IMG/VR virus record: IMGVR_UViG_3300013414_000359
Span: 834-64,833 of that record
Direction: 5' to 3' (one strand)
Source of the DNA: a virus
Lineage: Duplodnaviria > Caudoviricetes
DNA length: 64,000 nt
Shown here: piece after piece, positions 2,937-22,431 of the stretch
How the letters are laid out: each line of letters opens with the position of its first letter
How positions within the stretch are numbered: position 1 is the stretch's first letter
Translations under genes and position numbers: made by a program
Notes under the pieces: model-generated
What the model was told of the DNA's origin: nothing
Databases searched by the model: none
The model's input: the letters and a program-made list of their open reading frames with translations, nothing else

Positions 2937-2955
2937 TTTCAATTCTCTCCTTTCT

Positions 2956-3169: not shown

Positions 3170-3223
3170 TTTCGTTTCCTCCTTGACCCTCATCGGGCTT
3201 CTTTGTTATTTCTTTATACTCTT

Positions 3224-3252
3224 ATTATATCACTTTAAGTTGAATTTGTCAA
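3224..3252 (-). promoter_or_regulatory. Consensus sigma-A promoter P1
   Basis: TTGACA-AATTCAACTTAAAGTGA-TATAAT on the minus strand, 17-nt spacer. Confidence 0.85.
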
Positions 3253-3298
3253 GGGTTTTCCGAAAAATTTTTCAGAAAAAATTACCGTAAGTGTGATT

Positions 3299-6468: not shown

Positions 6469-7469
6469 CTTTCGTCTTCGTCGTCATCGAGGCTCCCATA
6501 GGAAACGCCGAACTCCGACTCGTACAGCATCGGAATACAGCCGTCGCCAAACTCGGCGCGGTATTCCTCAAGCTCGTAGGGGCTGTAGTAGTCCAGCAGC
6601 TCCGCATACGCCCCGCGAATATCAGCGGGAATGCTCATCAAGTCAGGCTCCTCGAAATCGTCCTCGGTCAATTCCTTACCGTCAAGACCGACAAGACTTT
6701 TTTTTGTCGAACCCCAGCCGTAAAACTTGCCGTATCTGCCGTAGCTCAAATCGAAACCGGCGTAGACCGCCTCGATGTACTCGTACTTCGGGAAGTCGGC
6801 TTTCGTGGAGTCCCCAACAATTTCAACAACCTTTTTAACCGTGTTGTTGAGCTGCTTTCGGTCAATGTACTCGTGCTGGGTGTGGGCATTGTAGTAGCCG
6901 GACGAGAGGTTCACCGCCGCCACGCCGAGTTCCGGCGCAATGTAGGAAATGTCGCTGAAAGAGCCGTACTCCGTCTTGAAGCCCTTGCCGGTGATGTACG
7001 CCTCGAACTCGTCATTGGCGCAGTCATAATAAACCGCATCGTTTTTGCCCTTACGGTCAATCTCCACGATGGCTTTCAGCGTTTTCAAGCCTTTCGGCAG
7101 CCCACCTTTCTGGAACTGTTTGCAGAATACGCTTGCTCCAACGCCGCCGGTTTCCTCGTCACAGGTGAACAAGAGCCAAGGCTTTACTCGGCATAGCTTA
7201 TGCGCCGTCACGAGAGCGTACACGCCACAGCGGTCATCGCCGCCGATGCCCTGCGGGGACATCAGGACATTGCCGTTCTGCGTTTTGCAAATGTATTTGA
7301 CACGCTCTTTGTGAACGGTATCGAGATGTGCAACCAGCATAACTGGTGCCTCACCGGGGATAAGAATGTAACTGCCTTTTAAGGCGATTACCTTTCTGCC
7401 GAACATCTTGCACAGGGTCTTGAACAACTCATTTTGGGTTGGCATCAAAAAATCTTCTAACTGGTTCAT
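6447..7469 (-). CDS. M20/M28-clan zinc peptidase-like protein
   Basis: LVAHLDTVH, GIGGDDRCG, FTCDEETGG, VEIDRKG, SFSDIS, GYYNAHT metal-ligand pattern. Confidence 0.8.
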   Translation of the reverse strand: MNQLEDFLMPTQNELFKTLCKMFGRKVIALKGSYILIPGEAPVMLVAHLDTVHKERVKYICKTQNGNVLMSPQGIGGDDRCGVYALVTAHKLCRVKPWLLFTCDEETGGVGASVFCKQFQKGGLPKGLKTLKAIVEIDRKGKNDAVYYDCANDEFEAYITGKGFKTEYGSFSDISYIAPELGVAAVNLSSGYYNAHTQHEYIDRKQLNNTVKKVVEIVGDSTKADFPKYEYIEAVYAGFDLSYGRYGKFYGWGSTKKSLVGLDGKELTEDDFEEPDLMSIPADIRGAYAELLDYYSPYELEEYRAEFGDGCIPMLYESEFGVSYGSLDDDEDERWAEQNK

Positions 7470-9175: not shown

Positions 9176-9620
9176 TGTGGTGTCCTCCTTTGAGCATTCC
9201 ATCGTTGATGTAGTTCGCAAAAATCCAGTTGCGGCAAGTGCGCTGCTTCTGTGTGAAGAAGCCGTGCGGGTTAGGCTTGTAGTCCGCAAAGTCGATGCGG
9301 CGGGCGTCTGTAATCGTCAGGTGGATATTTTTGTTATCCACCTCAACCGTTTCGCCCAGAGCGGGTATGAACGCGATGTGTGTATTCTCGTGCCAGTTGA
9401 ATCCAGCACTCAGTCCACAGAGGTAATACGCCACAGCTTTCGGGTCGCGCTTGACCTCGATGTCGATAATCGCGCTGGGCTTGCGCAGCGTCCCGTAGTA
9501 GACGCGGTTGTCTTTCTGACCGATGAAACACTCCGCACAGCATTTGTAGATGTTCACCGCACGAATGCTTCTCAGCCAGAAGAACTCGTGGTAACGTTTG
9601 ACTTCCAGTTTCAGGTGCAT
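9162..9620 (-). CDS. Unknown Cys-rich protein, paralog 1 of 3
   Basis: Shares FFWLR, CCAxCF, YYLCGLS, NTHxAF and QRTCRNWIFANY with 21997-22431 and 56597-57061. Confidence 0.85.
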   Translation of the reverse strand: MHLKLEVKRYHEFFWLRSIRAVNIYKCCAECFIGQKDNRVYYGTLRKPSAIIDIEVKRDPKAVAYYLCGLSAGFNWHENTHIAFIPALGETVEVDNKNIHLTITDARRIDFADYKPNPHGFFTQKQRTCRNWIFANYINDGMLKGGHHNGNE

Positions 9621-9640
9621 TGGTTTGTCCTCCTTGTTTT

Positions 9641-9668
9641 AGAGCCGTGAGGCTCTTTTTTTTATTTT
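9641..9668 (+). terminator. Plus-strand intrinsic terminator within a minus-strand operon
   Basis: AGAGCC-GTGA-GGCTCT followed by TTTTTTTATTTT. Confidence 0.55.
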
Positions 9669-10102
9669 GCTGTCGTTCTCTTGCGACCGCGTTTCTTGGC
9701 GGCGGGCTTCTGAACGGTTTTGTCCTTGCGGGTCTGCTTTCTCACAACCGGCTCATCGGTCTGCCACATTAGGCTGACCTTGAACGCTCCCGAACTCATA
9801 CGCTCGATGGCGCAGGTCCAGTCGTCGGTCTCAACCGTGACATCGGGGTCTTCGCGGTCAGCACTGTCAACGGCACTCATAATCTGCTCTGCGGCTTCTG
9901 CAAGAAGTGCAGCAGCTTCGGCAGCCTCAAGGTACTTGAGCAGCCAGTAACCGGCTTTCTTGTAGCTGCGGACGGTGTAGAGAACATCGGCTTGGCAGCG
10001 GTTGCCGCCAATCTTGATGTCCATTACGTTGTCTGTCTCGGCGTAATTCGCCTGTCCCGGTTCGTGGATTTTCACCCATCTGCTTTGTCTCAGCTCTGTC
10101 AT
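9662..10102 (-). CDS. Hypothetical protein with a basic C-terminal tail
   Basis: Start re-set to MTELRQ after RBS AAGGAGG; the upstream extension in the ORF track is the HH2 ribozyme. Confidence 0.7.
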   Translation of the reverse strand: MTELRQSRWVKIHEPGQANYAETDNVMDIKIGGNRCQADVLYTVRSYKKAGYWLLKYLEAAEAAALLAEAAEQIMSAVDSADREDPDVTVETDDWTCAIERMSSGAFKVSLMWQTDEPVVRKQTRKDKTVQKPAAKKRGRKRTTAK

Positions 10103-10129
10103 TTTATTTGTCCTCCTTAATGGAATTTT

Positions 10130-10190
10130 GACCTGCCTCATCAGCACCGGGCGGTCGGTCTCCGGTGGACGCCCTTTTGGGCGTTTCGGC
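10130..10190 (-). ncRNA. Type II hammerhead ribozyme (HH2)
   Basis: gcc GAAAC gccc-aaaa-gggc GUC caccgg-loop-ccggug CUGAUGA ggc; loop I gacc can pair with tail gguc; compensatory changes relative to HH1. Confidence 0.88.
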
Positions 10191-10209
10191 TTTCTCCACT
10201 TCAAGTGTT

Positions 10210-10256
10210 TTGCTCTAATTCAGCTAACGATTGAAATGGTTTTTAACCCAAAAAGA
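10210..10256. other. Left inversion site (attR-like hybrid: P-type arm + GA core + B-type arm)
   Basis: TTGCTCTAATTCAGCTAACGA TT GA AA TGGTTTTT; arm matches the attR arm at 15/21; 10232-10242 is a perfect 11-bp inverted repeat of 20952-20962. Confidence 0.8.
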
Positions 10257-10751
10257 GGCGTGTTGATATTCAGCGCCGCTGCACTCCTCTTTCTCACCGG
10301 CTGTGGTGCTGACGAAACCGCTATCAAGCCGACTGACGCGCTGGCCGCGGAGCCATTAACGGCTTACGTCGAGTCTACTGAGATGCTGACTTCAATGCCA
10401 GTCTCAATGCAGAAGCCTTGGACAGACGAAGAACTCAGCTTGATGGCAAGGACGCTTTCAGGCGAATGCTACGAGGATAAGGAACTTGACAAAAGACGGG
10501 TCTGCGAAGTCATCTTGAACCGAGTGAGCGACGGACGATTTGGCGACTCAATCTGCGAGGTCATTACCGCACCAAATCAGTTCCAAGGCTATTGGCGCCC
10601 ATCGCGTCCTGTATCTGAGAATGATTTGGCTGTTGCGGAACAAACCCTCGAAGATTGGTACGAGAACGGATGCAAAGCACTTTCTCCGTACCTGTACTTT
10701 AGCGCCGGTGGAAACCGTGAAAACACATTCTATGAAGACATAGAGTGGTGA
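10236..10751 (+). CDS. SleB/CwlJ-like cell-wall hydrolase (Hydrolase_2) lipoprotein, separated from its RBS and first three codons
   Basis: ARTLSGE...VILNRV...VITAPNQF motif; lipobox LTGC; no RBS here; GGAGGT...ATG GGT GAA sits at 20980-20959 on the minus strand. Confidence 0.8.
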   Translation: MVFNPKRGVLIFSAAALLFLTGCGADETAIKPTDALAAEPLTAYVESTEMLTSMPVSMQKPWTDEELSLMARTLSGECYEDKELDKRRVCEVILNRVSDGRFGDSICEVITAPNQFQGYWRPSRPVSENDLAVAEQTLEDWYENGCKALSPYLYFSAGGNRENTFYEDIEW

Positions 10752-10771
10752 AAAATAAGGAGGACAAACAA

Positions 10772-11185
10772 ATGTTAGAAGTAAAAGTAACCATCGAGGC
10801 CGCTGAACTGGCGGCGGCAGTCAACAACCTCGCAGCCGCGATGAACGGCGCGAAGCCTATCCCAACAGGAGCGGCAGCTACTCAGGCCCCTGCACCTGCA
10901 ATGCCGAACCCCATGCCCGCACCTACGGCTCCCGTAGCTCCGCCCGCACCCGCTGCACCCGCAGCGCAGATGAACTACCCCGCACCGAGCGTACCGCTTG
11001 CTGCGCCCCCGCAGTACACTGTAGACCAGATTATGGCGGCTGGCGCGACCCTGATGGACGCTGGCAAGGTGAACGAGCTGATGAACTTGCTGCACTCTTT
11101 CGGAGTACAGGCGGTTATGGACCTCAAGCCGGAGCAGCTTGGAGCCTTTGCAACCGCAATGCGTGACTTGGGAGCGAAGATATGA
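10772..11185 (+). CDS. Pro/Ala-rich hypothetical protein typical of PolA-type phage replication modules
   Basis: RBS AAGGAGG; C-terminal LLHSFGVQAVMDLKPEQLGAF helix. Confidence 0.7.
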   Translation: MLEVKVTIEAAELAAAVNNLAAAMNGAKPIPTGAAATQAPAPAMPNPMPAPTAPVAPPAPAAPAAQMNYPAPSVPLAAPPQYTVDQIMAAGATLMDAGKVNELMNLLHSFGVQAVMDLKPEQLGAFATAMRDLGAKI

Positions 11186-12351
11186 GCAGTCACGCACTCC
11201 TTTCTCCCTCAAGTGCGCATCGGTGGCTGAACTGCCCTCTTGCTCCGAGGCTTGAAGCCACTCTCCCTGAGAAACCGAGCGAGTACGCCAAAGAAGGAAC
11301 AATCGCCCACAGCGTCTGCGAGGTCAGTGCAAAGCTGCATTTCAAGAGCATCAAGAAGACCGAGTACAACAAGGTCATCAAGAAGCTGAAAACTGACACT
11401 CTGTGGGACGACGAAATGCTCCGAACAGCAGAAACCTATGTCGAGCATCTAAGCGAAAACGCTATGCACTTTGAACACGAGCCGTATGTGGCTTTCGAGG
11501 TCAGGGTTGATATTGCGGATTATGTACCCGATGCTTTCGGCAAATGCGACTGTATTATGTTCGGCGGGGACACGCTCATTATCACGGACTATAAGCACGG
11601 TAAAGGCGTTCCCGTTTCACCGGAGGAAAACCCTCAGCTTATGCTGTATGCGCTTGGCGCATTGAAGCTCTACAAGCCTCTGTTCGGCGGTGCGATTAAA
11701 AAGGTCGCAATCGTCATCGACCAGCCCCGCCTCAATTCCTATGAAATGTGGACTTGCGCCACAGAGGAGCTGCTTGCTTGGGGCGAAAGCATAAAGCCGA
11801 AAGCGCAAGCTGCGTTTATGGGTTTTGGTGAGTATCACGCAGGTGATTGGTGCCGCTTCTGCCGCGCCAACGGTATCTGCAAAGCACAGGCTGAACAGCA
11901 GACCAGCGCATTTGATGATTTCGCAGGTGCTGTCGGAAACCCACAAGCAATCCTGACGCCCGAAGAAATCAGCGCAGTCTTGGAGCGCGGCAAAAACCTC
12001 GCAGAGTGGTTTAAGACCGTACAGGAAAAGGCATTGGAAATGATGCTAAACGGTGACAAAATCCCCGGCTACAAGGTCGTGGAGGGCCGCAGTCAGAGAG
12101 CTTGGACAGACCAAGACAAGGCTCTTGAGAAGCTGCAATCGTCCGGCATTGAGCGCGCTGTTATTTATGACAGCGTTCCCAAAACCCTTGCACAGCTTGA
12201 GAAACTGCTTGGCAAAGCCAAGTTCGATGAACTGGTTAGCGAGTTTGTCTTCAAGCCGCAGGGTAAACCGACCCTCGCACTGGCAGATGACCCGCGTAAG
12301 GAGTTCAACAGCGCCGCTGCTGACTTCGCGGGGGTGACAAATGGCTCGTAA
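11182..12351 (+). CDS. DUF2800-family PD-(D/E)XK nuclease
   Basis: HALLSPSSAHRWLNCP, FGKCDCI, ITDYKHGKG, NPQLMLYALG, WCRFC. Confidence 0.85.
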   Translation: MSSHALLSPSSAHRWLNCPLAPRLEATLPEKPSEYAKEGTIAHSVCEVSAKLHFKSIKKTEYNKVIKKLKTDTLWDDEMLRTAETYVEHLSENAMHFEHEPYVAFEVRVDIADYVPDAFGKCDCIMFGGDTLIITDYKHGKGVPVSPEENPQLMLYALGALKLYKPLFGGAIKKVAIVIDQPRLNSYEMWTCATEELLAWGESIKPKAQAAFMGFGEYHAGDWCRFCRANGICKAQAEQQTSAFDDFAGAVGNPQAILTPEEISAVLERGKNLAEWFKTVQEKALEMMLNGDKIPGYKVVEGRSQRAWTDQDKALEKLQSSGIERAVIYDSVPKTLAQLEKLLGKAKFDELVSEFVFKPQGKPTLALADDPRKEFNSAAADFAGVTNGS

Positions 12352-13294
12352 TATATACCCAGGCAGATGCTACTGCTGTGGAGCTTGGATAGAGCCGGGC
12401 TACGGACATTTCGAGCGTCACAAAGGTCACTGGCGCATAAAATGCGTGAAATGCGCCAGCGGTAGAGTTCTTACTGAACAAGACCCCGGTGTTAAGTGGG
12501 CAAAGAGCGTTGCCCAAAAAACTAAATGCGAAAATGACAAGGAGGACAATCAAATGTATAACAATGTACCTACGAAAGTTTTGACCGGCGAGGTTCGCCT
12601 GTCCTATGTAAACCTCGTTGCGCCGAGAGCGAACAACAGCGACCCGAACGCAACGCCCAAGTATTCTGTTACGCTGCTCATTCCGAAAACCGATGTAGCG
12701 GTAAAGCAGAATATCGACGCCAGCATCGAGGCTGCTGCGGCTGACGCGCAGAGCAAGATTTGGAATGGCGTCAGACCCCCTGTTCTGCCCATTCCCATTC
12801 ACGATGGCGATGGCGTTCGTGAAAACGGAACTCCCTACGGACCTGAGTGCAAGGGTTGCTGGGTAATCACAGCCAGCTCCACACAGAAGCCGCAGGTGGT
12901 TCATCAGAGTGACATCAACACCGAACTGTTGCCACAGGACATCTACAGCGGTATGTATGCTCGTGTGACAATCAATTTCTTCGGCTACAACAGAGCCGGT
13001 AAGCGTGGCGTGGGCTGCGGTCTCGGCAACGTGATGAAGACCCGCGATGGCGAGGCTCTTGCCGGGGGTGCGTCCGCAGCGGCTGATTTCGCCGGTGTCG
13101 GTCAGACGATTGGTGCAGTTACCCCTGACTATGGAGCTGCTATGCCCGCTACCCCCGGCGCTGCTGGTACGCCGCCTTGGGGTGCTCCTGCCAGTCCCGC
13201 ATACGGACAGCCTGCCGCAGCCGCACCCTCTAACCCGATGGGCGTTCAGCCGGGGGCGGTCAACCCGCTCACAGGTCAGCCTTACTATGGGTAA
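12341..13294 (+). CDS. DUF2815-family ssDNA-binding protein with an in-frame N-terminal Zn-finger-like extension
   Basis: VRLSYVNL...KYSVTLLIPK...IYSGMYARV...GVGCGLGNVMKTRDGE; internal RBS before MYNNV (12554); extension has CYCC and CVKC. Confidence 0.8.
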   Translation: MARNIYPGRCYCCGAWIEPGYGHFERHKGHWRIKCVKCASGRVLTEQDPGVKWAKSVAQKTKCENDKEDNQMYNNVPTKVLTGEVRLSYVNLVAPRANNSDPNATPKYSVTLLIPKTDVAVKQNIDASIEAAAADAQSKIWNGVRPPVLPIPIHDGDGVRENGTPYGPECKGCWVITASSTQKPQVVHQSDINTELLPQDIYSGMYARVTINFFGYNRAGKRGVGCGLGNVMKTRDGEALAGGASAAADFAGVGQTIGAVTPDYGAAMPATPGAAGTPPWGAPASPAYGQPAAAAPSNPMGVQPGAVNPLTGQPYYG

Positions 13295-13333
13295 TACGCT
13301 ATAGGCGCACAGATATTTCACCGAATACCCAAG

Positions 13334-13372
13334 ATGCGCGGCTGCGGTTAGTGGATAGCCGCAGCCGCGCAT
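13334..13372 (+). terminator. Long GC-rich hairpin between the SSB and polymerase genes
   Basis: ATGCGCGGCTGCGG...CCGCAGCCGCGCAT perfect 14-bp stem; short U tract. Confidence 0.5.
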
Positions 13373-13390
13373 TTATCATTTGTATAGGAG

Positions 13391-15382
13391 GTGGAGATGT
13401 TGAGGCATCTTTCGATTGATTTAGAGACATACAGCAGCGTCCCCATCGCTAAAGCAAGTGCCTACAAATATGTTCAAAGCCCCGACTTTGAGATACTGCT
13501 TTTTGCTTATAGCGTAGATGGAGATCCTGTTGAGATTGTTGATTTGGCGCAGGGCGAGGTATTACCGGACTGGCTGTATCAGGCGATAGCCAGCCCTGAA
13601 TACATCAAACACGCTTACAATGCGGCGTTTGAATGGTATTGCTTGTCGAAGTTTTATGGACGACTGCTGCCGGTAGACCAATGGCGAGACACGATGTTGC
13701 ACGGTCTGTACTGCGGTTTTACAGCAGGACTGGACGCCACAGGCAAGGCTCTTGGTCTTCCTGCCGAGAAACAGAAGCTGTCTGTTGGCAAAGCCCTTAT
13801 CCGATATTTCTGTGTTCCCTGCGCTCCCACAAAGAGCAATGGCGGCAGAACACGGAACCTTCCGAAGCACGACCCTGAGAAGTGGGGTCTGTTTAAGGAA
13901 TACTGCGTCGGTGATGTTGTGACCGAATCCGAGATTGAGCGGCGGCTGTCGCGCTTTCCTGTTCCTAATGACATCGAGAAGCAGTGGCAGACGGATTTGC
14001 TGATAAATGCTCGCGGTGTAGCAGTTGATATGGATATGGTGCAGGGCGCACTGGAAATCGCCGCAAACGCGCACGATGCTCTTATGCGCGAGGCTGTTTC
14101 CCTTACAGGGCTTGAAAACCCCAACAGCATCGCACAGCTTTCCAAATGGCTTGAAAAGGAGACCGATGAGAATATAGCCGACCTCCGTAAAGACACGGTT
14201 GCGATGCTGCTGAAAAACCAAGTCGTGACCGGTGATGCGGAGCGAATGCTTGAAATCCGTCAGGAACTCGGCAAGACCAGCACCAAGAAATATAACGCCA
14301 TCGAAGCTGCTGTCTGCGCTGATGGTCGTGTGCGCGGATTGTTGCAGTTCTACGGTGCAAACAGAACAGGACGGTGGGCAGGACGGCTGGTGCAAGTCCA
14401 GAACCTACCTCGCACCTACATTGAACAGCTTGACCTCGCAAGAGGTGCTGTGAAACGGCGAGAGGCTGAAAAGCTGCGGTTTTGTTTCGGCTCTGTGCCT
14501 GACACGCTCTCGCAGCTCATACGGACTTCATTCATAGCGACCAAAGGAAACAAGCTGGTAGACGCCGACTTCTCAAGCATCGAGGCAAGAGTTATCTCGT
14601 GGCTTGCGGGAGAACATTGGCGGCTCGATGTGTTCAAGACACACGGCAAAATCTACGAGGCATCTGCCAGCCAGATGTTCGGCGTTCCGATTGAGAAGAT
14701 AAAAAAGGGCAACCCCGAATACGCACTGAGACAGCGCGGCAAGGTTGCTGAACTCGCCCTCGGTTATCAGGGCAGTACGGGCGCGCTTATCACGATGGGC
14801 GCTCTGAATATGGGCATTCCGGAGGAGGATTTGCCCGACATCGTGACCCGTTGGCGCGAAGCCAACAAGCGGATTGTAGACCTGTGGTATCGCGTTGAGA
14901 ATGCTGCCGTTTCCGTTATTCAGACGGGGCAGCAGGTAGGCGTGAACAATCTGCTCTTTACGAGAGAGTTTGACCTTGAACATGGTCTGGACTTTCTGAC
15001 GATAACACTGCCGAGCGGACGCAAGCTGTTCTATGCGAGACCGGAGCTTGGCGTGAACCAATGGAACAAACCCTCGATTACCTACCGAGGCGTACACCAA
15101 TCAACAAAACAGTGGACTGTCCTTGAAACCTACGGCGGCAAACTGGTGGAGAATATTGTGCAAGCCATCGCCCGCGACTGCCTTGCGGCAGCGATTGAGC
15201 ATCTGGAAGAAGCGGGATTTCCTGTAGTATTCCACGTTCACGACGAGGTTGTTATCGACTGTCCGGCTGACAAAGCGAACCTTGATGAAGTTGTCCGGCT
15301 TATGACCTTACCAATCCCTTGGGCGCAGGATTTGCCTCTGAACGCTGATGGCTGGGTCGGGGACTTCTTTAGAAAGGATTGA
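13391..15382 (+). CDS. Family A DNA polymerase (3'-5' exonuclease + polymerase domains)
   Basis: SIDLETYS, HAYNAAFE, TGRWAG, DADFSSIEAR (motif A), RQRGKVAELALGY (motif B), VHDEVV (motif C). Confidence 0.93.
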   Translation: MEMLRHLSIDLETYSSVPIAKASAYKYVQSPDFEILLFAYSVDGDPVEIVDLAQGEVLPDWLYQAIASPEYIKHAYNAAFEWYCLSKFYGRLLPVDQWRDTMLHGLYCGFTAGLDATGKALGLPAEKQKLSVGKALIRYFCVPCAPTKSNGGRTRNLPKHDPEKWGLFKEYCVGDVVTESEIERRLSRFPVPNDIEKQWQTDLLINARGVAVDMDMVQGALEIAANAHDALMREAVSLTGLENPNSIAQLSKWLEKETDENIADLRKDTVAMLLKNQVVTGDAERMLEIRQELGKTSTKKYNAIEAAVCADGRVRGLLQFYGANRTGRWAGRLVQVQNLPRTYIEQLDLARGAVKRREAEKLRFCFGSVPDTLSQLIRTSFIATKGNKLVDADFSSIEARVISWLAGEHWRLDVFKTHGKIYEASASQMFGVPIEKIKKGNPEYALRQRGKVAELALGYQGSTGALITMGALNMGIPEEDLPDIVTRWREANKRIVDLWYRVENAAVSVIQTGQQVGVNNLLFTREFDLEHGLDFLTITLPSGRKLFYARPELGVNQWNKPSITYRGVHQSTKQWTVLETYGGKLVENIVQAIARDCLAAAIEHLEEAGFPVVFHVHDEVVIDCPADKANLDEVVRLMTLPIPWAQDLPLNADGWVGDFFRKD

Positions 15383-15388
15383 GGCTAT

Positions 15389-15592
15389 TTGTATACACAC
15401 AGAAATTCAGAAGGATATAAAGACCCAACAGCTGGCGAGGCGCTTAGTAACATTACGCAGGAAGAACAGAAACGCCTTGCGGCGATAAGCGCACTTATCC
15501 CAATTATGAAACAGACAGCGGAGCTTGTTGGATTTGAAGTTGTTGGACGTATTGTCCTTATGGATAAGGAAACAGGCAAAAAGTATAAATGA
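15389..15592 (+). CDS. Small phage hypothetical protein
   Basis: RNSEGYKDPTAGEA motif, common in Firmicute phages. Confidence 0.65.
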   Translation: MYTHRNSEGYKDPTAGEALSNITQEEQKRLAAISALIPIMKQTAELVGFEVVGRIVLMDKETGKKYK

Positions 15593-15605
15593 TGGAGGCT
15601 TTGCT

Positions 15606-18032
15606 ATGCAAAACGACCGTAAAATTACAATAACGGTTGGTAACAATCGAAAAAGCATAAATTGGCAGCCTCAGTCCATCATGTTGTCCGAGTTCTACGA
15701 AAAACTCCGAATCCCAAACCGCTCGACTGAGACGATGCTGGAATACCTGAACCTCAAGAAGTCAGAGCAGGACGAGCGAAAGGACATCGGCGGCTTTGTG
15801 GCGGGCAGTCTTTCGGGACCCCGCCGTAAGGCTGGCGCGGTTACAGGGCGTGATGTTATCACTCTCGACTTCGACAATATCCCACCAGGAGGAACGCAGG
15901 AAATCCTCAAAAGGGTGGACGCTCTCGGCTGCGGTTATTGTATCTATTCCACACGAAAGCACGCGCCCGCAAACCCAAGGCTTCGTATTCTTCTGCCATT
16001 CGACAGAACGGCTACCGCCGATGAGTATGAGCCAACGGCAAGGTATATGGCGGCGTGTATTGGGATTGAGTTCGCGGACCCGACAACATTTGAAGCGACA
16101 AGGCTGATGTACTGGCCGAGCTGCTGCGCAGACAGCGAGTATGTGTACTACTTCGGCGATAAACCCATGCTGTCTGTAGACGGATTGCTGAGAGCCATGA
16201 CGGAACGTTACGGTGACTGGCGAGACGTTACCCACTGGCCGCAGGTCCCCGGCTCTGAGAACGCATACAGGAAGATGGCAACCAAGCAGAGCGACCCACT
16301 CGGAAAGAACGGTATCATCGGGGCGTTCTGCCGCACCTACGACATTTACGGTGCAATGGACACCTTTCTTGACGGCATATACGCCCCTGTGGACGATTCT
16401 CGTGGACGCTATACCTATCTCGGCGGCAGCACAACAGGCGGTGCGGTAATCTACGACAACGGAATGTTCCTGTATTCCCACCACTCTACCGACCCCTGCT
16501 GTGGAAAGCTCGTCAACGCCTTTGACCTCGTGCGACTGCACAAGTTTGGCGATTTGGACGATGCTGCGGACTCCAAGACGCCGCCGAACCGCCTCCCCTC
16601 TTATCGGGCGATGTGCGAGTTTGCGGTAGCGGACACCAAGGTTTCGCGGCAGATGGCAAAGGAACGGGCTGAGTCAGCGGTAAGCGACTTTGCCAAGATG
16701 ACTGAAACCACAGGTGAAGAAGAAGCCGAGGGGCTTGCGTGGTCTGCGGAGCTGGAACTGAACAAGCAGACAGGTACAATAAAAGCCACAATAGACAACA
16801 TCTGGCTCATCTTAGAGAACGACCCGAACCTCAAAGGCAAGTTCGCTTTGAACGAGTTTGCAGGGCGCGGCGAGGTGCTGGGAGACCTCCCTTGGAGCGC
16901 ATTCGATAAGCGCAGAGCGTGGGCAGACCACGACAATCAGGGCTTGTACTGGTACTTTGAAAAGGTATACGGCATCACCGGCAACGGCAAGATTGACGGC
17001 GCTCTTTCGCTGCACAGCGAAAAGCACAAGTTCAACGACGTGAAGAACTATCTCATATCGCTGCAATGGGACGGCGTACCGAGGCTGGACACCCTGTTTG
17101 TGGACTACCTCGGTGCGAGTGATAAGCCCTATACGAGAGCCGTCACACGAAAGGCTTTCACAGCGGCTGTGGCGCGGGCATTGGAGCCGGGTTGCAAATA
17201 TGACACGATGCTGATTCTTGCGGGACCGCAGGGCATCGGCAAGTCCACGCTCCTCGATAAGATGAGTAAGGGCTGGTTTAACGACGGCATACGCACATTC
17301 GAGGGCAAGGAGGCAAGTGAACTGCTCCAAGGCGTTTGGCTGGTGGAAATCAGCGAACTGGACGCTTTCAGACGCACTGACGTAGCCAGAATCAAGCAAT
17401 TCCTCAGCTTACGGGCGGATAGATTCAGAGCCGCCTATGGGCGCCATGTGAAGGATATTCCACGCTGCTGTGTGTTCTTTGGCACAACGAATACAACCGA
17501 GTTCCTGCGGGACAGAACCGGCAACCGACGCTTTTGGCCGGTAGATACGGGACTGGAACCGAAGCTCAAGAACATCTGGGCTGATTTGGACGGAGAGATA
17601 GACCAGATTTGGGCAGAAGCCGTTATGCGCTGGCGTTTAGGCGAGAGCCTGTATCTCGTAGGAGATGTCGAGGAAGATGCGAAAGCCGAGCAGGAATCCC
17701 ATAGGGAAATCAGCAGTAAGGAAGGCATCGTTCTCGATTTTGTGGAGCGACCAGTTCCAGAAGATTGGCCCAAGTGGGACCTTGACAAGAGGCGAATGTT
17801 CCTTAACGGTATGAACCAAGGTGAAGTAACACTTGTCCTGCGCGACAGGATATGCGCTTTGGAAGTGTGGTGCGAAGCATTCGGCGGTTCACCAAAGGAC
17901 TTTCACTACACAGAGGCTGTTGAGATTAACGAAATACTGCGGGCGATGCCGGGGTGGACGAAAACGGCAACAGGCTTGCGCTTTGGGTATTGTGGTTATC
18001 AGAGGGGTTTCCGTCGTGAAACATTAGGGTGA
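15606..18032 (+). CDS. Primase-helicase (virulence-associated protein E / VirE-like)
   Basis: Primase-like N-terminus (TLDFD, YSTRKH, RLRILLP); Walker A GPQGIGKST; ELDAF, FFGTTN, DRTGNRRFWP. Confidence 0.88.
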   Translation: MQNDRKITITVGNNRKSINWQPQSIMLSEFYEKLRIPNRSTETMLEYLNLKKSEQDERKDIGGFVAGSLSGPRRKAGAVTGRDVITLDFDNIPPGGTQEILKRVDALGCGYCIYSTRKHAPANPRLRILLPFDRTATADEYEPTARYMAACIGIEFADPTTFEATRLMYWPSCCADSEYVYYFGDKPMLSVDGLLRAMTERYGDWRDVTHWPQVPGSENAYRKMATKQSDPLGKNGIIGAFCRTYDIYGAMDTFLDGIYAPVDDSRGRYTYLGGSTTGGAVIYDNGMFLYSHHSTDPCCGKLVNAFDLVRLHKFGDLDDAADSKTPPNRLPSYRAMCEFAVADTKVSRQMAKERAESAVSDFAKMTETTGEEEAEGLAWSAELELNKQTGTIKATIDNIWLILENDPNLKGKFALNEFAGRGEVLGDLPWSAFDKRRAWADHDNQGLYWYFEKVYGITGNGKIDGALSLHSEKHKFNDVKNYLISLQWDGVPRLDTLFVDYLGASDKPYTRAVTRKAFTAAVARALEPGCKYDTMLILAGPQGIGKSTLLDKMSKGWFNDGIRTFEGKEASELLQGVWLVEISELDAFRRTDVARIKQFLSLRADRFRAAYGRHVKDIPRCCVFFGTTNTTEFLRDRTGNRRFWPVDTGLEPKLKNIWADLDGEIDQIWAEAVMRWRLGESLYLVGDVEEDAKAEQESHREISSKEGIVLDFVERPVPEDWPKWDLDKRRMFLNGMNQGEVTLVLRDRICALEVWCEAFGGSPKDFHYTEAVEINEILRAMPGWTKTATGLRFGYCGYQRGFRRETLG

Positions 18033-18327
18033 TACATTTCGGCTAAGTCGAACATTAGACACGAAAGTCGAAGTTTAGGCGGGAAATTCAACACAATGTT
18101 TCAGGGTAGTTTGTTTCAATGTTTCGGCAATGTTTCACCCAATGTTTCACCCTCAAAACCGCACCGTTACTGGCTTTTTACCCTATTTGAAACATTGAAA
18201 CATTCATTTCTAATAGACTTTAGAATTAGAGAGAATAGAGATATTAGAGGATTTATATACTTCTCTAATACTCTCTAAATCCTCTAATCTGGGCGTTATA
18301 TACGCGCACGCGCGCGAGGAGGACAAA
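18018..18327 (+). repeat. ~300-bp non-coding origin-like element, copy 1
   Basis: Four CAATGTTTC direct repeats, inverted GAAACATT copies and AG/CT-rich inverted repeats; homologous to 41943-42250 (inverted). Confidence 0.75.
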
Positions 18328-18621
18328 ATGCTTGAAAAGACCATAGAACGACACCTCGTAGACGGGGTAAAAAGATTGGGCGGCTTATGCGTGAAGTTTG
18401 TCAGTCCCGGCACACCGGGCGTACCCGACCGCATTATCATAACCGCCACAGGCAAAATCATTTTTGTAGAGTTGAAAACCGAAACCGGACGCTTGGCGAA
18501 AATTCAGCGGTACACCATCGAACAGATGATGAGGCGCGGAGCCGATGTCCGAGTTATCAAAGGGCTGGACAGCGTGAAGGAGCTGTTAGCTGAAATTGGA
18601 GGTATGCAGAATGGAGTTTAA
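18328..18621 (+). CDS. VRR-NUC domain nuclease
   Basis: KFVSPGTPGVPDRI...FVELKT. Confidence 0.88.
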   Translation: MLEKTIERHLVDGVKRLGGLCVKFVSPGTPGVPDRIIITATGKIIFVELKTETGRLAKIQRYTIEQMMRRGADVRVIKGLDSVKELLAEIGGMQNGV

Positions 18622-19981
18622 GCCCTACCCATATCAACAATATTGCATCGACAGTATCATCTACAATCGGGCAGTTGGGCTTTTTCTCGATATGGGTCTT
18701 GGCAAAACGGTTATTACCCTAACCGCAATCCACGACCTCCGATACAACCGATGGGAAGTCGCCAAACCACTGATTATCGCCCCGAAGAAAGTGGCAGAAG
18801 CGACGTGGAGTACAGAGGCGCAGAAGTGGAACCACTTAAAGATGATGAGGATTGTTCCGGTTATCGGAACTCTCCAACAGAGGCTTCGGGCTTTGGCGAC
18901 ACCGGCAGACGCCTATGTTATCAATCGGGAGAACACGCAATGGCTGGTGGAGCATTTCAAGAACGAGTGGCCGTTCGATATGGTTGTTCTTGACGAGAGT
19001 TCCAGTTTCAAGAACAGTCAGAGCAAGCGGTTCAAATCCTTGAAGCTGGTCCGAAGCAGGATTCGCCGCATCGTGGAGTTGACGGGAACCCCGTCAAGCA
19101 ACGGCTTGGAGGACTTGTGGGCACAGGTGTACTTACTGGACGGAGGCGCACGACTTGGCAAGACACTGAGCGCTTATCGGGATAAATACTTTATCCCCGG
19201 CAAGCGCAATCGGACGACGGTGTTTAATTACACCCCGAAGGACGGCAGTTTCGAGATGATAAAAAGCGCAATCAGCGACATCTGCATCAGCATGAAAGCC
19301 AGCGACTACATCTCCCTGCCAGACGTGCTTCACAACGACATTCCCGTCGTGTTGGACGCTGCGGCGCAGAAAGCCTATACCCGATTGGAGACAGAGCTGC
19401 TGTTGCAGATTGATGAAAACACCATCACGGCTGGCAGCGCAGGAGTACTTACGGGCAAGCTGCTACAGCTTTGCAACGGGGCGATTTACGATGAGAACAA
19501 AGCGGCGGTGGCAGTTCACGATTGTAAGATTGACGCTTTCCTTGAGTTGATTGAGCAGCTGAATGGGCAACACGCCCTTGTGTTCTATAACTTCCAGCAC
19601 GACCGCGACCGGCTGCTGAAAGCCCTGACGGGTACGAACCTGCGTGTCAGGGTCTATTCACAGGCAAAGGATGAGGTTGATTGGAACAACGGGGAAATCG
19701 ACATACTGCTTGCGCACCCCGCAAGCTGCGGCTACGGGTTAAACCTCCAACGAGGCGGACACCACGCCATCTGGTTTGGGCTGACTTGGAGCTTGGAGCA
19801 GTACGAGCAGGCAAATAAGCGGTTGCACCGGCAAGGGCAAGACCACCCTGTCGTAATCCACCACTTGATTGTCAAGAACGGAATGGACGAGACAGTCATC
19901 GAGGCGCTGCAAAATAAAGGCGATATGCAGAACGCCCTGATGGACGCCTTGAAGGTCAAAATTCGCCAGTTGCACCGTTAA
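18611..19981 (+). CDS. SNF2-like (DEAD/DEAH) helicase
   Basis: LDMGLGKT, VVLDESS, LTGTP, GYGLNLQ, QANKRLHRQGQ. Confidence 0.9.
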   Translation: MEFKPYPYQQYCIDSIIYNRAVGLFLDMGLGKTVITLTAIHDLRYNRWEVAKPLIIAPKKVAEATWSTEAQKWNHLKMMRIVPVIGTLQQRLRALATPADAYVINRENTQWLVEHFKNEWPFDMVVLDESSSFKNSQSKRFKSLKLVRSRIRRIVELTGTPSSNGLEDLWAQVYLLDGGARLGKTLSAYRDKYFIPGKRNRTTVFNYTPKDGSFEMIKSAISDICISMKASDYISLPDVLHNDIPVVLDAAAQKAYTRLETELLLQIDENTITAGSAGVLTGKLLQLCNGAIYDENKAAVAVHDCKIDAFLELIEQLNGQHALVFYNFQHDRDRLLKALTGTNLRVRVYSQAKDEVDWNNGEIDILLAHPASCGYGLNLQRGGHHAIWFGLTWSLEQYEQANKRLHRQGQDHPVVIHHLIVKNGMDETVIEALQNKGDMQNALMDALKVKIRQLHR

Positions 19982-19999
19982 AAAAGGAAGGAAACCAAA

Positions 20000-20473
20000 A
20001 TGCAAAAAACGGAAATGCTTGAAATAGCCAAACTTGCGGCAGCGGAGGTCTTGTCCCAGCGAGACTCCATCGTCGAGGAGGAGTTCGACTCCCGATACCA
20101 CGATGTCAACCTGCTGATGAAGAACTACCGTAAGCTGAAATCGCATTACTCCCACGTTTCGCCGGAGACGTTGGAGGTCAGTTCTATATGCTCCATGCGC
20201 CGTAAAACCGGCTTGATGATGAGCCACGTTGATAAGATGCTGACGGTGTACAAGGCTTTATGCGAGGAGGCTGTCAACTCAGAAGAAGCCCGCCGGTGGG
20301 AGGCTCTTTACCTCCGCTACATCAGTGATGAGAAGATAAGCGTCGATGACATAGCTGACAGGCTGCACATAGACAAGCGGACTTTTTACCGAGACATCAA
20401 CAAGGCTATGGAGGATATGGCTGTCCTGCTGTTCGGCATCGAGGCTATCGGCACTTGGAAACGCCGCAGGTAA
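20000..20473 (+). CDS. Sigma-region-4-like/ArpU-type transcriptional regulator (candidate late activator)
   Basis: C-terminal HTH SVDDIADRLHIDKRTFYRDINKA; last gene of the replication operon. Confidence 0.7.
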   Translation: MQKTEMLEIAKLAAAEVLSQRDSIVEEEFDSRYHDVNLLMKNYRKLKSHYSHVSPETLEVSSICSMRRKTGLMMSHVDKMLTVYKALCEEAVNSEEARRWEALYLRYISDEKISVDDIADRLHIDKRTFYRDINKAMEDMAVLLFGIEAIGTWKRRR

Positions 20474-20502
20474 CAAGGCGTTCGGAAATGACAATCAGGG
20501 AC

Positions 20503-20536
20503 CCGTCAAGTGATGACAGGCCCCTGATTTTTGTTG
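20503..20536 (+). terminator. Terminator ending the replication operon
   Basis: AATCAGGG...CCCTGATT followed by TTTGTTG. Confidence 0.6.
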
Positions 20537-20587
20537 CTGAACGTGGCATTTCGAGAAAATTTTTCTGAAAAAATTTCTAAAAAGGTA

Positions 20588-20616
20588 TTGACATACTCAA
20601 CTTAAAGTGCTATAAT
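20588..20616 (+). promoter_or_regulatory. Consensus sigma-A promoter P2 (near-copy of P1)
   Basis: TTGACA-TACTCAACTTAAAGTGC-TATAAT-AAGAGTATAA. Confidence 0.85.
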
Positions 20617-20670
20617 AAGAGTATAAGGAAAACAAAGAAAAAGGAACCCGATAAGAGGAGGACAAGATAA

Positions 20671-20940
20671 ATGGATAAGCAGTGCATTCAAGAAGAAATG
20701 GAATATCGTGAGTGGCGAGAAGCTCCGCAATGGTATTGCGTAAAGACAACCTACCACCTAAGCACCGGCAAGATGGAAAGCGAAATCGTAGCCGACGAGA
20801 AAACCAACCTCGCAATCGTGATACAGCAGGTCGAGAAACCGTCGGACGGCGTGTTTGAGACGGCGAACAGCACAATCTACTACACCTACCACAGAAGCTA
20901 CGAAGAAGCAAAGCGCCAGATGATGGCGGCAAGAGCATAG
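20671..20940 (+). CDS. Hypothetical protein, first gene after P2; its stop codon lies in the att-like arm
   Basis: 89-aa ORF with RBS AGGAGG; TAG at 20938-20940 is part of ATAGGCAAAT. Confidence 0.75.
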   Translation: MDKQCIQEEMEYREWREAPQWYCVKTTYHLSTGKMESEIVADEKTNLAIVIQQVEKPSDGVFETANSTIYYTYHRSYEEAKRQMMAARA

Positions 20941-20980
20941 GCAAATACAGCAAACCATTTCACCCATATCAATTACCTCC
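20937..20980. other. Right inversion site (attL-like hybrid, inverted)
   Basis: ATAGGCAAATACAGCAAACCA TT TC ACCCAT; arm matches the attR arm at 19/21; outer part carries the RBS and ATG GGT GA of the split SleB-like gene. Confidence 0.85.
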
Positions 20981-21187
20981 TACCGCCATCTGGCGGCTTT
21001 TTCTTTGCCTGAAATCGAATTGGCTGATGAAATTCTCGCCGTTGTAGCTTGTCTCTCGGTAGTAAATACCGTCCTCAAGCCACTCCCGCCGGACACTCTC
21101 GCCGTCTCGCAGCTTTGGCAGGGCGTCTTGCGCCTCTTTTGCCAACTCTGTCGCAACAGCGAACAAAACAGCAGACGCGGCGGTCAT
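20969..21187 (-). CDS. Hypothetical protein downstream of cro
   Basis: 72-aa ORF coupled to cro (ATGA overlap); its 3' end contains the RBS for the next gene. Confidence 0.7.
   Translation of the reverse strand: MTAASAVLFAVATELAKEAQDALPKLRDGESVRREWLEDGIYYRETSYNGENFISQFDFRQRKSRQMAVGGN
20983..21006 (+). terminator. Terminator stopping the P2 transcript just past the inversion site
   Basis: CCGCCA-TC-TGGCGG-C-TTTTTCTTT. Confidence 0.6.
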
Positions 21188-21390
21188 TTCCTCTCCTCGA
21201 CGTCATCGGCAAGAAGCTCCTCGATGGTGCAGCCGTAGAGCTTTGCAAGAATAGGCAACTTATCCGCGCGAGGTCGGGCAAGCCCGCGCTCCCACTTGCT
21301 TACGGCAGATTCCTTTACACCGAGAATTTTGGCAACTTCTCGCTGGGTAGGGATAGCACCGCGGAGTCTTCGTTCCCTCATAACATTCAT
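21184..21390 (-). CDS. Cro-like XRE HTH protein
   Basis: TQREVAKILGVKESAVSKWERG...PILAKLYGCTIEELL. Confidence 0.88.
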   Translation of the reverse strand: MNVMRERRLRGAIPTQREVAKILGVKESAVSKWERGLARPRADKLPILAKLYGCTIEELLADDVEERK

Positions 21391-21441
21391 GGTATCACCT
21401 CCTCCAAGTTGTCCAGCGGCTCCAACTTTCTTTATGCTCTT

Positions 21442-21544
21442 ATTATACCACTTTATTTCTTTCTTGTCAACTACTTTTCGAGTTTTTCCGAAAAAATTTT
21501 TTAAGAGTTATCCTCTTGACAACTTGAATTAAAAGATATATAAT
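21442..21544. promoter_or_regulatory. Divergent cro/cI promoters
   Basis: Minus strand TTGACA(21470-21465)-17-TATAAT(21447-21442); plus strand TTGACA(21516-21521)-17-TATAAT(21539-21544). Confidence 0.85.
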
Positions 21545-21559: not shown

Positions 21560-22000
21560 GTGGTGACTCTGATGGACGACTTTGGCACGAGGCTCAAAAG
21601 GCTGCGTAGGGAGAACGACGTGACGCAAGCTGCTCTTGCGGAATACATCGGCGTGGTAGCGTCAGCGGTAGGAAAGTATGAAACCGTGGACAACGCGTAC
21701 CCCAGCGTGGAGGCTTTGATTAAGATAGCCGAGTTCTTTCATGTGAGCATAGATTTCCTGCTGCTTGGGGTCACACCCGATGCCAAGCAGTCGGGAGATA
21801 ATAATGTCAGTGGCTCGCTGTCCAACAGCTCGGTCATACAGGCGAGCCGAGGCAGTGTGGTCTACAACGGTGATGGGAGCAAAGCCCTGTCGCCCGAAGT
21901 ATTGGAACTGCTGCGAGTGTATGAAACGCTCGATGGCAGAGGACGGTTACGGCTTCTCAACTTTGCGGTTGAGTTAGAAGAAAGGAGCAAAGCAGAATGA
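21560..22000 (+). CDS. CI-like XRE repressor without an S24 peptidase domain
   Basis: RLKRLRREND VTQAALAEYIGVVASAVGKYE HTH; short helical C-terminus. Confidence 0.85.
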   Translation: MVTLMDDFGTRLKRLRRENDVTQAALAEYIGVVASAVGKYETVDNAYPSVEALIKIAEFFHVSIDFLLLGVTPDAKQSGDNNVSGSLSNSSVIQASRGSVVYNGDGSKALSPEVLELLRVYETLDGRGRLRLLNFAVELEERSKAE

Positions 22001-22431
22001 AAATGACTTTGGAAATCAAGAAGAAGTGTTCATTCTTTTGGCTGCGAGCCATTCGGAGCGCAAGGATTGACAAGTGCTGTGCAAAATGCTTTAATGCGGA
22101 CACTTTCCATGAGGTTTATGAGGGAACACGCTATAAGGACAAAGCACTTGTGGAGTTAGACATCACTCCCGACAGTCGAGCGAAAGCCTACTATCTCTGC
22201 GGCTTGAGTAACGGCTTTAAGTATGAGGAGAACACCCATGTCGCCTTTGTCCCCTGCGAGGGACAGACCATCTCGATTGAGAACGATAAGATTCGGCTTG
22301 TTATCACCGACGCCCGTCAAATTGATTTTGAGGGCTATAAGCCGAATCCCGAAGGTGAGTTCACAGAGGAGCAGCGCACCTGCCGTAACTGGATATTTGC
22401 GAACTACCTTCTGGACGGAATGCCTCTGTGA
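21997..22431 (+). CDS. Unknown Cys-rich protein, paralog 2 of 3 (between repressor and integrase)
   Basis: Same invariant motifs as 9162-9620; overlaps both neighbours by 4 nt. Confidence 0.85.
   Translation: MKMTLEIKKKCSFFWLRAIRSARIDKCCAKCFNADTFHEVYEGTRYKDKALVELDITPDSRAKAYYLCGLSNGFKYEENTHVAFVPCEGQTISIENDKIRLVITDARQIDFEGYKPNPEGEFTEEQRTCRNWIFANYLLDGMPL

Follow-up and report, generated by a model that had tools for sequence, protein, structure and literature searches.

A replication module whose orientation follows integration state in temperate phages of gut Clostridia, probably inverted by the phage's own serine integrase

In a family of temperate phages of gut Clostridia, a 10.7-kb segment carrying the replication genes is found in two orientations, and orientation is strictly tied to integration state: free genomes with an intact attP carry it one way (ON), and integrated prophages carry it the other way (OFF). 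We consider it likely that this is a programmed inversion, driven by the phage's large serine recombinase (LSR) and coupled to integration and excision. The fuller picture, which we hold with a little less assurance but still regard as probable, is that one serine integrase acts on two orthogonal att pairs and that lysogenisation would therefore both integrate the phage and invert its replication module, so that the early and middle operons would be physically parted from the promoters that serve them. By way of a directionality factor, induction would then have to rebuild the genome before replication, and the lytic programme would be under a natural, recombinase-based "memory lock". The catalytic role of the LSR, the return to ON upon induction, and the identity of the directionality factor are inferences.

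The analysis started from a stretch of 64,000 nucleotides (the window; positions 834 to 64,833 of IMG/VR record IMGVR_UViG_3300013414_000359), which contains a 60.1-kb prophage at about 2262-62392 (Table 1). The hosts of this prophage family are gut bacteria and are diverse; some relatives were assigned to bins from other phyla. The phage is a frequent find in metagenomes of the rodent gut. One relative, from the group with 70-80% LSR identity, resides in the isolate Butyricicoccus pullicaecorum DSM 23266.

Table 1. Positions, in the window, of the integrase, its sites and the genes and signals around the invertible segment
Feature	Position	Strand	Remarks
Y-family polymerase gene	511-2049		Not the integrase
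attL	2262-2286		Host arm, with AA core region 2262-2265, then P' arm 2266-2286
HH1, hammerhead type II ribozyme	2953-3017	-
P1 (12/12 sigma-70 match)	3252-3224	-	Third copy of the lytic promoter; predicted to drive 50-aa gene, HH1, MazF-like gene and 52-aa gene up to attL
Middle operon	3299-10102	-	146-aa, 152-aa, 569-aa, M20-like genes and others
HH2, hammerhead type II ribozyme	10127-10191	-	Rfam RF02276, 46.5 bits; between site A and 146-aa gene
Internal site A	10210-10256		Hybrid attL/attR-type: P-type arm 10210-10230, spacer 10231-10232, central GA 10233-10234, B-type arm from 10235
Invertible segment, 10.7 kb	10235-20959		Both orientations in public assemblies; cargo (Pfam): SleB-like gene, DUF2800 nuclease, Enc34-type SSB, family A polymerase, VapE-type primase/helicase, VRR-NUC, SNF2 helicase, HTH protein, P2, 89-aa gene
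SleB-like cell-wall hydrolase lipoprotein gene	10236-10751	+	Pfam Hydrolase_2; heads replication operon
P2 (12/12 sigma-70 match)	20588-20616	+	Inner edge of segment; predicted to drive 89-aa gene (20671-20940)
Internal site B	20937-20982		Hybrid: P-type arm 20937-20957, spacer 20958-20959, central TC 20960-20961, B-type arm from 20962
Orphan RBS GGAGGT, 7 nt, ATG GGT GAA	20959-20980	-	1 nt past p72 stop; in ON, the SleB-like start
p72, 72-aa gene	20969-21187	-	Downstream of cro; conserved in all relatives
Terminator-like hairpin	20983-20996	+	Predicted to stop P2 transcripts in OFF
cro, HTH protein	21184-21390	-
Pcro (12/12), TTGACA-N17-TATAAT	21470-21442	-	Predicted to drive cro and p72
Perfect sigma-70 promoter (12/12)	21516-21544	+
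cI	21560-22000		In operon with p144 and LSR
p144	21997-22431		In operon with cI and LSR
LSR, 466 aa	22428-23828	+	Last gene of its operon; Pfam Resolvase + Recombinase + Zn_ribbon_recom
attR	62369-62393		P arm 62369-62389, 2-nt spacer, AA central dinucleotide, then host DNA (remainder of yolD-like ORF)

The integrase and its integration sites

Profile searches of the 64.8-kb record found no recombinase besides the LSR (a single match to PF00239 and none to PF00589). Its resolvase catalytic domain is present with the serine nucleophile (PF00239, E 2e-39), and the R9-V10-S11-T12 block is invariant among 12 relatives. The catalytic domain matches that of TP901-1 at E 3e-50, C-terminal recombinase and zinc-ribbon domains are present (PF07508 and PF13408), and the C-terminal structure of the A118 integrase aligns with residues 136-465 (E 1e-34). 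Integration is multi-target, with at least 19 different half-sites used. Hybrid attL and attR sites are seen at 19 junctions, and the core is AA/TT without exception at these junctions and in three relatives. An intact attP of 48 bp, composed of the P' arm of attL and the arm at 62369 and thus having the two inverted arms around a 2-bp core of an LSR site, is seen in the free genomes L005, L007, L014, and L024. The half-site convention used for att scoring was taken from PMC12286644.

Sites flanking the invertible segment

Three further copies of the 21-nt arm of attR (62369-62389) lie at 20937-20957 (19/21), on the minus strand at 2266-2286 (18/21), and at 10210-10230 (15/21), and together these four are the best matches in the window. 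Matches of at least 18/21 appeared in 0 of 100 shuffles. Those of at least 15/21 averaged about 1.4 per shuffle; taken alone, therefore, the copy at 10210 lacks significance. The register and GA core of site A, to which that copy belongs, are kept in relatives G001 and G004. At site B the pattern of P-type arm, 2-nt spacer, and invariant TC is present in 11 of 12 relatives, and the twelfth, L051, is alike by eye. The B-type arms score like natural attB half-sites when read in register (mean 2.5) and fall to between -6 and -13 when shifted by 1-4 nt; that of site B resembles natural half-sites in register only. By score, the window's own B-type arms rank in the top 0.5% and top 4% of phage positions, and a pair as good as this is expected by chance about once per genome.

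Sites A and B share an exact 11-bp inverted repeat (10232-10242 and 20952-20962) and differ outside it. Depending on the relative, identity around the core is 11, 8 (G004), or only about 3 bp (G001), and this shrinkage argues against homology-driven recombination. In ON genomes, the left half of site A is joined to the arm of site B, so that the ON form has one site with two P arms and one with two B arms on opposite strands, and in the OFF form both are hybrids. P/B-type sites are confined to free genomes and hybrid sites to integrated ones. With matching GA/TC cores in inverted orientation on one molecule, and with both states found, the pair has the make-up of an invertible attP/attB switch.

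An earlier note, made from the window's sequence alone, had pointed to these sites. Checking the sequence bore out the arm recurrences and dinucleotide register that it described (AA at attR, GA at 10233-10234, TC at 20960-20961), along with the exactness of the 11-bp repeat and the GGAGGT-7 nt-ATG GGT GAA string on the minus strand at 20980-20959. The palindromic attP-like junction that it expected inversion to build occurs letter for letter in L005, L007, L014, and L024.

Gene order in the two orientations

The same note had predicted that inversion would fuse the orphan RBS and start codon to the SleB-like gene, place the replication operon directly behind the cro promoter, and aim P2 at HH2 and the middle operon, and all three arrangements are seen in ON genomes. 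The fused gene (174 aa) is present letter for letter in L023 and L110-L118. The ON form reads as a single operon of cro, the 72-aa gene, the SleB-like gene, and the replication genes, with RBS and start codon restored, and the middle operon, beginning with its 146-aa gene, lies downstream of P2, the 89-aa gene, and the hammerhead. At OFF loci the SleB-like gene is called at 162-171 aa, and in G001 its start codon falls outside the segment.

Promoters and terminators were assigned by consensus scans. In the OFF orientation these scans found neither a promoter-like site nor an RBS upstream of the replication operon, and no promoter-like site upstream of the middle operon. The terminator that the note had proposed to stop P2 in the present orientation corresponds to a plus-strand terminator-like hairpin. 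P2 adjoins site B also where a relative has no 89-aa gene, and its promoter block is repeated at 3209-3283 and 21427-21481. The p72 product gave a confident alpha+beta structure model and matched neither a family nor a known fold in our searches; we regard it as a candidate directionality factor.

Orientation and integration state

That prophages should be OFF and free genomes ON had been set beforehand as a test. Among public contigs in which both features are readable, and counting relatives with 70-80% LSR identity, five records carry an intact attP and the ON form on the same contig (L005, L007, L014/L031, L024/L119, and the diverged L034/G006), and 16 are integrated and OFF (the window, L008/L026, L009-L013, L015-L018, G001, G004, G005, G007, and G008), with exceptions in 0 of 21. 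Fisher's exact test on 5 versus 16 gives approximately 5e-5 by our own arithmetic. L121, from a lineage 1.3% diverged, is also integrated and OFF and was left out of the 16. Two roughly genome-sized OFF contigs, L004 (60,274 bp) and L006 (60,131 bp), have ends that coordinate arithmetic places at the att crossover, so they do not reveal their integration state.

The evidence for the free ON form comes from metagenome contigs. The ON-specific 174-aa protein was found in 34 index blocks, compared with 533-547 for p89 and p72. Contigs with the 174-aa protein are at most 60.4 kb long among the 9 places listed of 24 contigs, longest first, and OFF contigs reach 265 kb. The free, ON genome L014 differs by 1 nt in 7.9 kb from the integrated, OFF prophages L009, L011, L012, and L018, which are mutually identical and occupy four different insertion sites; such identity at four sites, 1 nt away from a free ON genome, implies recent passage through the free form. 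The k-mer branch vertex of the ON junction is the exact starting point of two contigs, L117 (10,754 bp, matching the segment) and L118, which suggests that ON and OFF coexist in their samples.

Discussion

In the mechanism that we propose, the free ON genome carries three LSR sites: attP, whose core is AA; another attP-type site, with two P-type arms around GA; and, in inverted orientation, an attB-type site that also has GA and overlaps the place where the leading gene of the replication operon has its RBS and start. Once lysogeny is chosen, LSR made from the cI operon would recombine attP with a host attB, integrating the phage, and the internal attP-type with the attB-type site, inverting 10235-20959. 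Both reactions would yield hybrid L/R-type sites that LSR alone should not recombine, and the differing central dinucleotides would prevent crossing between the two. In the OFF state Pcro would read into nothing useful, the replication operon would have neither promoter nor start signal, and P2, severed from the middle operon, would run into the terminator. Upon derepression, a directionality factor would be made from a promoter still working in OFF, the 72-aa gene after cro being the candidate, and together with LSR already present it would restore ON and excise the phage.

It is also conceivable, if unlikely, that the LSR flips the segment at lysogenisation as a by-product or dead end that induction does not undo, leaving OFF prophages crippled so that only never-integrated genomes propagate. 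L042 is OFF and has a stop codon within its LSR gene, so some OFF prophages are decaying. However, a dead-end lysogen would offer no selection to retain the lysogeny operon and the sites, whereas relatives with 70-80% LSR identity still keep both sites, with the same core, placed over the start of the first replication gene, and the identical prophages at four insertion sites stand within 1 nt of a free ON genome. Less likely again is stochastic flipping (phase variation or bet-hedging) independent of integration: the apparent coexistence of ON and OFF in two samples would fit it, but the division of records is strict and the mixed class is absent, and P/B-type as opposed to hybrid sites predict directional flipping.

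We give still less credence to inversion by a host invertase, or by way of the short inverted repeat, in place of the phage LSR. The exact 11-bp repeat at the window's crossover speaks for such a route, but the reduced core identity in G001 and G004 does not, nor do the arms, which in exact register look like those of the LSR's own attP and like natural attB half-sites; the phage carries no other recombinase, and a common host invertase is unlikely given the diversity of the hosts. For a one-off accidental inversion that crippled this prophage, or an assembly artefact, nothing speaks beyond prior plausibility, and we find this hardly credible, the least so of all these explanations. Both forms occur in independent assemblies (MEGAHIT k99/k119, SPAdes, and Logan), NCBI MAGs, and an isolate genome, and an 11-bp repeat is unable to misjoin k-mers of 31 or more. 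The one-off accident is excluded because the same two states recur in diverged relatives and across insertion sites of which more than 15 are independent.

Lysogeny is usually described in terms of repressor control and integration. If the segment is indeed inverted by the integrase in a programmed way, gene order would be part of the switch, giving a lock at the DNA level that leaky transcription could not open, and recombination (the flip, probably with excision alongside) would be forced ahead of replication. An "inverted module" in such prophages would then be annotated as their normal resting state rather than as damage. The system would also supply a ready-made orthogonal site pair for one enzyme, a multi-target LSR with many mapped attB sites, and a natural counterpart to engineered integrase memory devices. 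Given how often the phage turns up in metagenomes of the rodent gut, and with a relative resident in a cultured strain, the idea is directly testable.

We found no description in the literature of such a natural integrase-driven switch. The LSR shares its domain set with phage LSRs that work with directionality factors (TP901-1, A118/LI, phiC31, Bxb1, and SPbeta SprA), and the sites are alike as well, being short, with two inverted arms and a 2-bp core that sets compatibility, and with attP x attB yielding hybrids. Described LSR phages, however, have one attP and use the integrase for integration and excision only, whereas this phage adds a further attP-type site and, in inverted orientation, an attB-type site of its own, the two having a different core, its integration is multi-target, and the same enzyme would also rearrange phage gene order. 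In active lysogeny, as with SPbeta in spsM, skin in sigK, and the Listeria comK phage (PMC5025042), an LSR- and RDF-dependent DNA rearrangement likewise serves as a gene switch, but there a host gene is restored by excision, and here the operons connected or cut off, by inversion, would be the early and middle ones of the phage itself.

Serine-recombinase inversion within a phage or prophage genome is known from Mu Gin, P1 Cin, e14 Pin, and PinQ/PinR (PMC12529663). The Gin/Cin/Pin enzymes are small serine invertases that recombine identical sites, do so without intrinsic direction, and control tail-fibre or surface genes; here, by contrast, an LSR would act on P/B-type versus hybrid sites, the state follows integration, and the cargo is a replication module. 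We rejected the small invertase class (Hin/Gin/Cin/Pin), whose members have about 190 aa and a C-terminal HTH, for this phage, its sole recombinase being a 466-aa protein with a zinc ribbon and its sites non-identical P/B hybrids. Closest in logic are the engineered memory switches, in which invertible promoters flanked by attP and attB are turned by Bxb1 or phiC31 integrase with or without an RDF (PMC7102980; assay in PMC12286644). They too place inverted attP and attB sites around a segment, with integrase alone setting the state and integrase plus RDF resetting it. Those switches are man-made, whereas the one proposed here would be natural, with a 10.7-kb segment carrying an operon and an outward promoter, and tied to the choice between lysis and lysogeny.

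Both orientations occur in public genomes

Exact copies of the phage proteins were looked up in public assemblies, which returned near-identical genomes in two arrangements of the replication segment (10235-20959): that of the window, here called OFF, and its inverse, ON. Most contigs retrieved with the 89-aa protein encoded behind promoter P2 are arranged as the window. In L005 and L007, the 146-aa gene and the entire middle operon (3299-10102) come after it on the same strand, which is the arrangement that the earlier note had predicted for the P2 side after inversion, and the predicted two-armed attP-like junction is present exactly in both. Looking up p72, the 72-aa protein encoded after cro, gave contig L023 with the order cro, 72-aa gene, 174-aa SleB-like gene, and replication genes, as expected if inversion places the replication operon downstream of cro. 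The SleB-like gene begins 1 nt past the p72 stop there, and the junction agrees letter for letter with the proposed fusion of a ribosome-binding site (RBS) and ATG to this gene. In the readable parts of ON genomes, all called genes share one strand, the lysogeny cassette excepted.

The ON-specific 174-aa protein occurs in 34 index blocks, whereas the 89-aa and 72-aa proteins occur in 533-547. Among the matches listed for it (9 of 24, longest first), no contig exceeds 60.4 kb, while OFF contigs reach 265 kb. Two contigs, L117 (metagenome ERZ28436649) and L118 (ERR2167774), have the k-mer branch vertex of the ON junction as their exact starting point, and L117, at 10,754 bp, is about as long as the segment; such starts are what an assembler would yield from a sample holding both orientations. 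In four runs mapped as Logan contigs, no contig switches strand at 10234 or 20959, and two of these runs pass through internal site B in OFF form, but Logan contigs lose rare variants and this result therefore says nothing on minor ON molecules. In run X6, two Logan contigs overlap by 30 nt (10205-10234), the overlap ending exactly at the GA core of internal site A, while site B is read through unbroken; the joint could be a recombinant at the GA core or a coincidence. A search of the cultured-phage database found no relative, the matches being limited to a hammerhead and short promoter-like ones, and a search of IMG/VR gave only distant SleB-like matches and none to the 89-aa protein.

Orientation follows integration state

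Look-ups with the small genes beside attL and attR returned loci that each cover site A together with an att site. Here "free" denotes a contig holding attP and not purified virions. Every contig with an intact attP is ON (L005, L007, L014/L031, and L024/L119, a slash joining names of one record); these measure 50.6-60.4 kb and carry attP at differing internal positions. Every contig with host DNA past the arm is OFF (the window, L008/L026, L009-L013, and L015-L018). A further integrated and OFF record, L121, belongs to a lineage diverged by 1.3% and was left out of the count, as were L004 and L006; these two are OFF, are about genome length, end at the att core by coordinate arithmetic, and may be either integrated or free. 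A script classing each locus by junction type found no mixed class, and totals including relatives were 5 free/ON versus 16 integrated/OFF (Fisher's exact test, about 5e-5 by our own arithmetic), bearing out the expectation of OFF in the prophage and ON in free genomes. Over the 7.9 kb between site A and attL, a single nucleotide separates the free/ON genome L014 from four integrated/OFF genomes, which occupy four different insertion sites and are mutually identical over that stretch. Passage between the two states is therefore recent and repeated.

The prophage, its recombinase, and its targets

The prophage spans 60.1 kb (about 2262-62392) and has a G+C content of 52%, compared with about 35% in the flanks. 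Its large serine recombinase (LSR) is encoded at the end of an operon of overlapping genes, after a cI-like repressor and a 144-aa protein, and its profile matches the TP901-1 catalytic domain and A118 C-terminal domains. A second recombinase was sought in the record, and none was found: the 64.8-kb virus record contains no tyrosine recombinase and, among serine recombinases, the LSR alone.

Integrated prophages were found in many host settings unrelated to one another. Across the loci considered (the window, L009-L018, and L025-L033), 19 different host half-sites were collected; they share only a weak consensus, and the core at which they are joined is always AA/TT. The LSR is thus a multi-target enzyme, every insertion having arisen independently. 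In the window, the prophage splits a yolD-like ORF that lies behind the gene of a Y-family polymerase (511-2049). The split ORF is probably no dedicated target.

Several other features were observed in the window. The 144-aa protein (21997-22431, just upstream of the LSR gene) and a 152-aa protein of the middle operon (9162-9620) are paralogs with 56% identity and no known family, and a DNA repeat at 56610-56725 may be a sign of a third copy. A diversity-generating retroelement (27770-31656) comprises a reverse transcriptase gene, an Rfam RT-18 match at 28978-29062, and 137-nt repeats (29114-29250 and 29371-29507, 89% identical) adjoining a 767-aa gene. A minus-strand run of 12 C at 2568-2580, within a MazF-like gene, may be a slippage-prone tract; its length varies among assemblies, giving products of 145-158 aa, and mapped contigs have 1- or 3-nt deletions. 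A repeat of about 300 nt (18018-18317 and 41953-42250, 78-90% identity) is inverted in OFF and would become direct in ON, because one copy sits within the invertible segment.

Features of the prophage and its control regions
Feature	Position	Strand	Description
attP arm, left end	2266-2286	-	arm repeat at prophage end
attP arm, right end	62369-62389		arm repeat at prophage end
LSR gene	22428-23828		internal, not terminal; Resolvase, Recombinase, and zinc-ribbon domains
P1	3252-3224	-	perfect TTGACA-N17-TATAAT
P2	20588-20616	+	perfect TTGACA-N17-TATAAT
Pcro	21470-21442	-	perfect TTGACA-N17-TATAAT
PcI	21516-21544	+	perfect TTGACA-N17-TATAAT
Hammerhead type II ribozymes	2953-3017 and 10127-10191	-	each behind a lytic promoter and a small gene, ahead of an operon

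The internal sites resemble LSR sites

The sequence details in the earlier note were all correct when the window was rechecked. The arm copy at 20937-20957 matches at 19/21 positions, with none as good in 100 shuffles; the copy at 10210-10230 (15/21) is the fourth best in the window and not significant alone. Every arm has the same register of 2 nt and then a dinucleotide: the integration arms have AA, the copy at 10210-10230 has GA (10233-10234), and the copy at 20937-20957 has TC (20960-20961). The two internal arms share the plus strand, yet on it their cores read GA versus TC, and the two sites therefore have opposite polarity. An exact 11-bp inverted repeat covers both internal cores. On the minus strand, the RBS and ATG GGT GAA stand 1 nt past the p72 stop and in OFF open only a 69-codon antisense frame.

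When half-sites were aligned outward from the core, following the LSR convention of PMC12286644, ON combines a site whose arms are both P-type with a site whose arms are both B-type, and OFF has two hybrids. With the 19 natural attB half-sites as the basis of a weight matrix, the site-B B-type arms of relatives scored 2.5 on average, compared with a leave-one-out average of 2.1 for the natural half-sites and a background mean of -7.4; shifting these arms by 1-4 nt as a register control gave -6 to -13. The window's own two B-type arms rank among the best 0.5% and the best 4% of phage positions, a likeness to natural attB half-sites that weakly suggests that they are LSR sites.

Diverged relatives keep the arrangement

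When species-representative genomes were scanned with the LSR, phages whose LSR is 68-80% identical were found in the isolate Butyricicoccus pullicaecorum DSM 23266 (G001:C33, about 121.3-178.9 kb) and in MAGs assigned to groups that include Lachnospiraceae and Oscillospiraceae. By gene order, eleven relatives are OFF and one is ON (L034, a 57.7-kb contig). The five OFF relatives whose prophage ends were located (G001, G004, G005, G007, and G008) are all integrated, and in L034/G006, with the ON order, attP is intact. Site B consists of the arm, 2 nt, and an invariant TC in 11 of the 12, and the twelfth, L051, looks alike by eye. Site A retains its register and GA core in G001 and G004, where the integration cores are AA/TT. 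Identity common to both internal sites around the core falls from 11 bp in the window to 8 bp in G004 and about 3 bp in G001, and homology is therefore no driver of the exchange. In G001, the SleB-like start codon is outside the segment, so in our reading OFF takes it away. P2 abuts site B even in relatives without the 89-aa gene.

Close relatives (L034-L053) were binned to Lachnospiraceae, Oscillospiraceae, Selenomonadales, and Synergistales/Fretibacterium, a scatter that reflects a broad host range or else errors in binning. The LSR gene of the related prophage in a Fretibacterium-labelled MAG (L042:10001-11407) has an internal stop codon, and this prophage, in OFF order, may be decaying and locked.

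Proposed switch

Promoter and terminator calls are consensus matches. The three lytic promoters are embedded in repeated blocks of 55-75 nt. The earlier note had tied its reading to a replication operon that lacks a promoter and RBS in its present orientation, and ahead of this plus-strand operon in the window we found neither a promoter-like site nor an RBS. The second hammerhead lies in ON directly behind the two-armed internal att site.

An LSR alone joins P-type with B-type sites, the resulting hybrid sites are inert to it, and a directionality factor reverses the reaction; partner sites require matching core dinucleotides. Judging from sequence, the most likely mechanism, and one we hold with good confidence, is that a single LSR both integrates the genome and inverts the replication segment and that the factor reverses both. 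When lysogeny is chosen, the cI operon would provide the LSR, which would insert the genome at a host site with an AA core and invert 10235-20959 at the GA-core pair. Inversion would cut the replication operon off from Pcro, and the hammerhead and middle operon off from P2, leaving P2 to run into a terminator, convergent with Pcro. Once repression is lost, a factor encoded downstream of a promoter still active in OFF would join the resident LSR, bring back ON, and excise the phage. A tentative candidate for this factor is p72 because it is present in every relative; no family or fold match to it came from PHROGs, PDB sequences, or a fold comparison. The 89-aa protein, without a match in PHROGs or Pfam, was also considered for this role and dropped, its gene being absent from several relatives.

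Comparison with known systems

Full-text literature searches gave no natural case of an LSR inverting a phage lytic module, nor any description of a temperate phage that uses its own integrase to invert the replication module as part of lysogeny. The arrangement and its use appear to be undescribed, while all parts of the switch are known. Two kinds of precedent were found in the literature: engineered devices, in which integrase-driven inversion is used as the device, and small invertases, which flip tail-fibre or surface genes.
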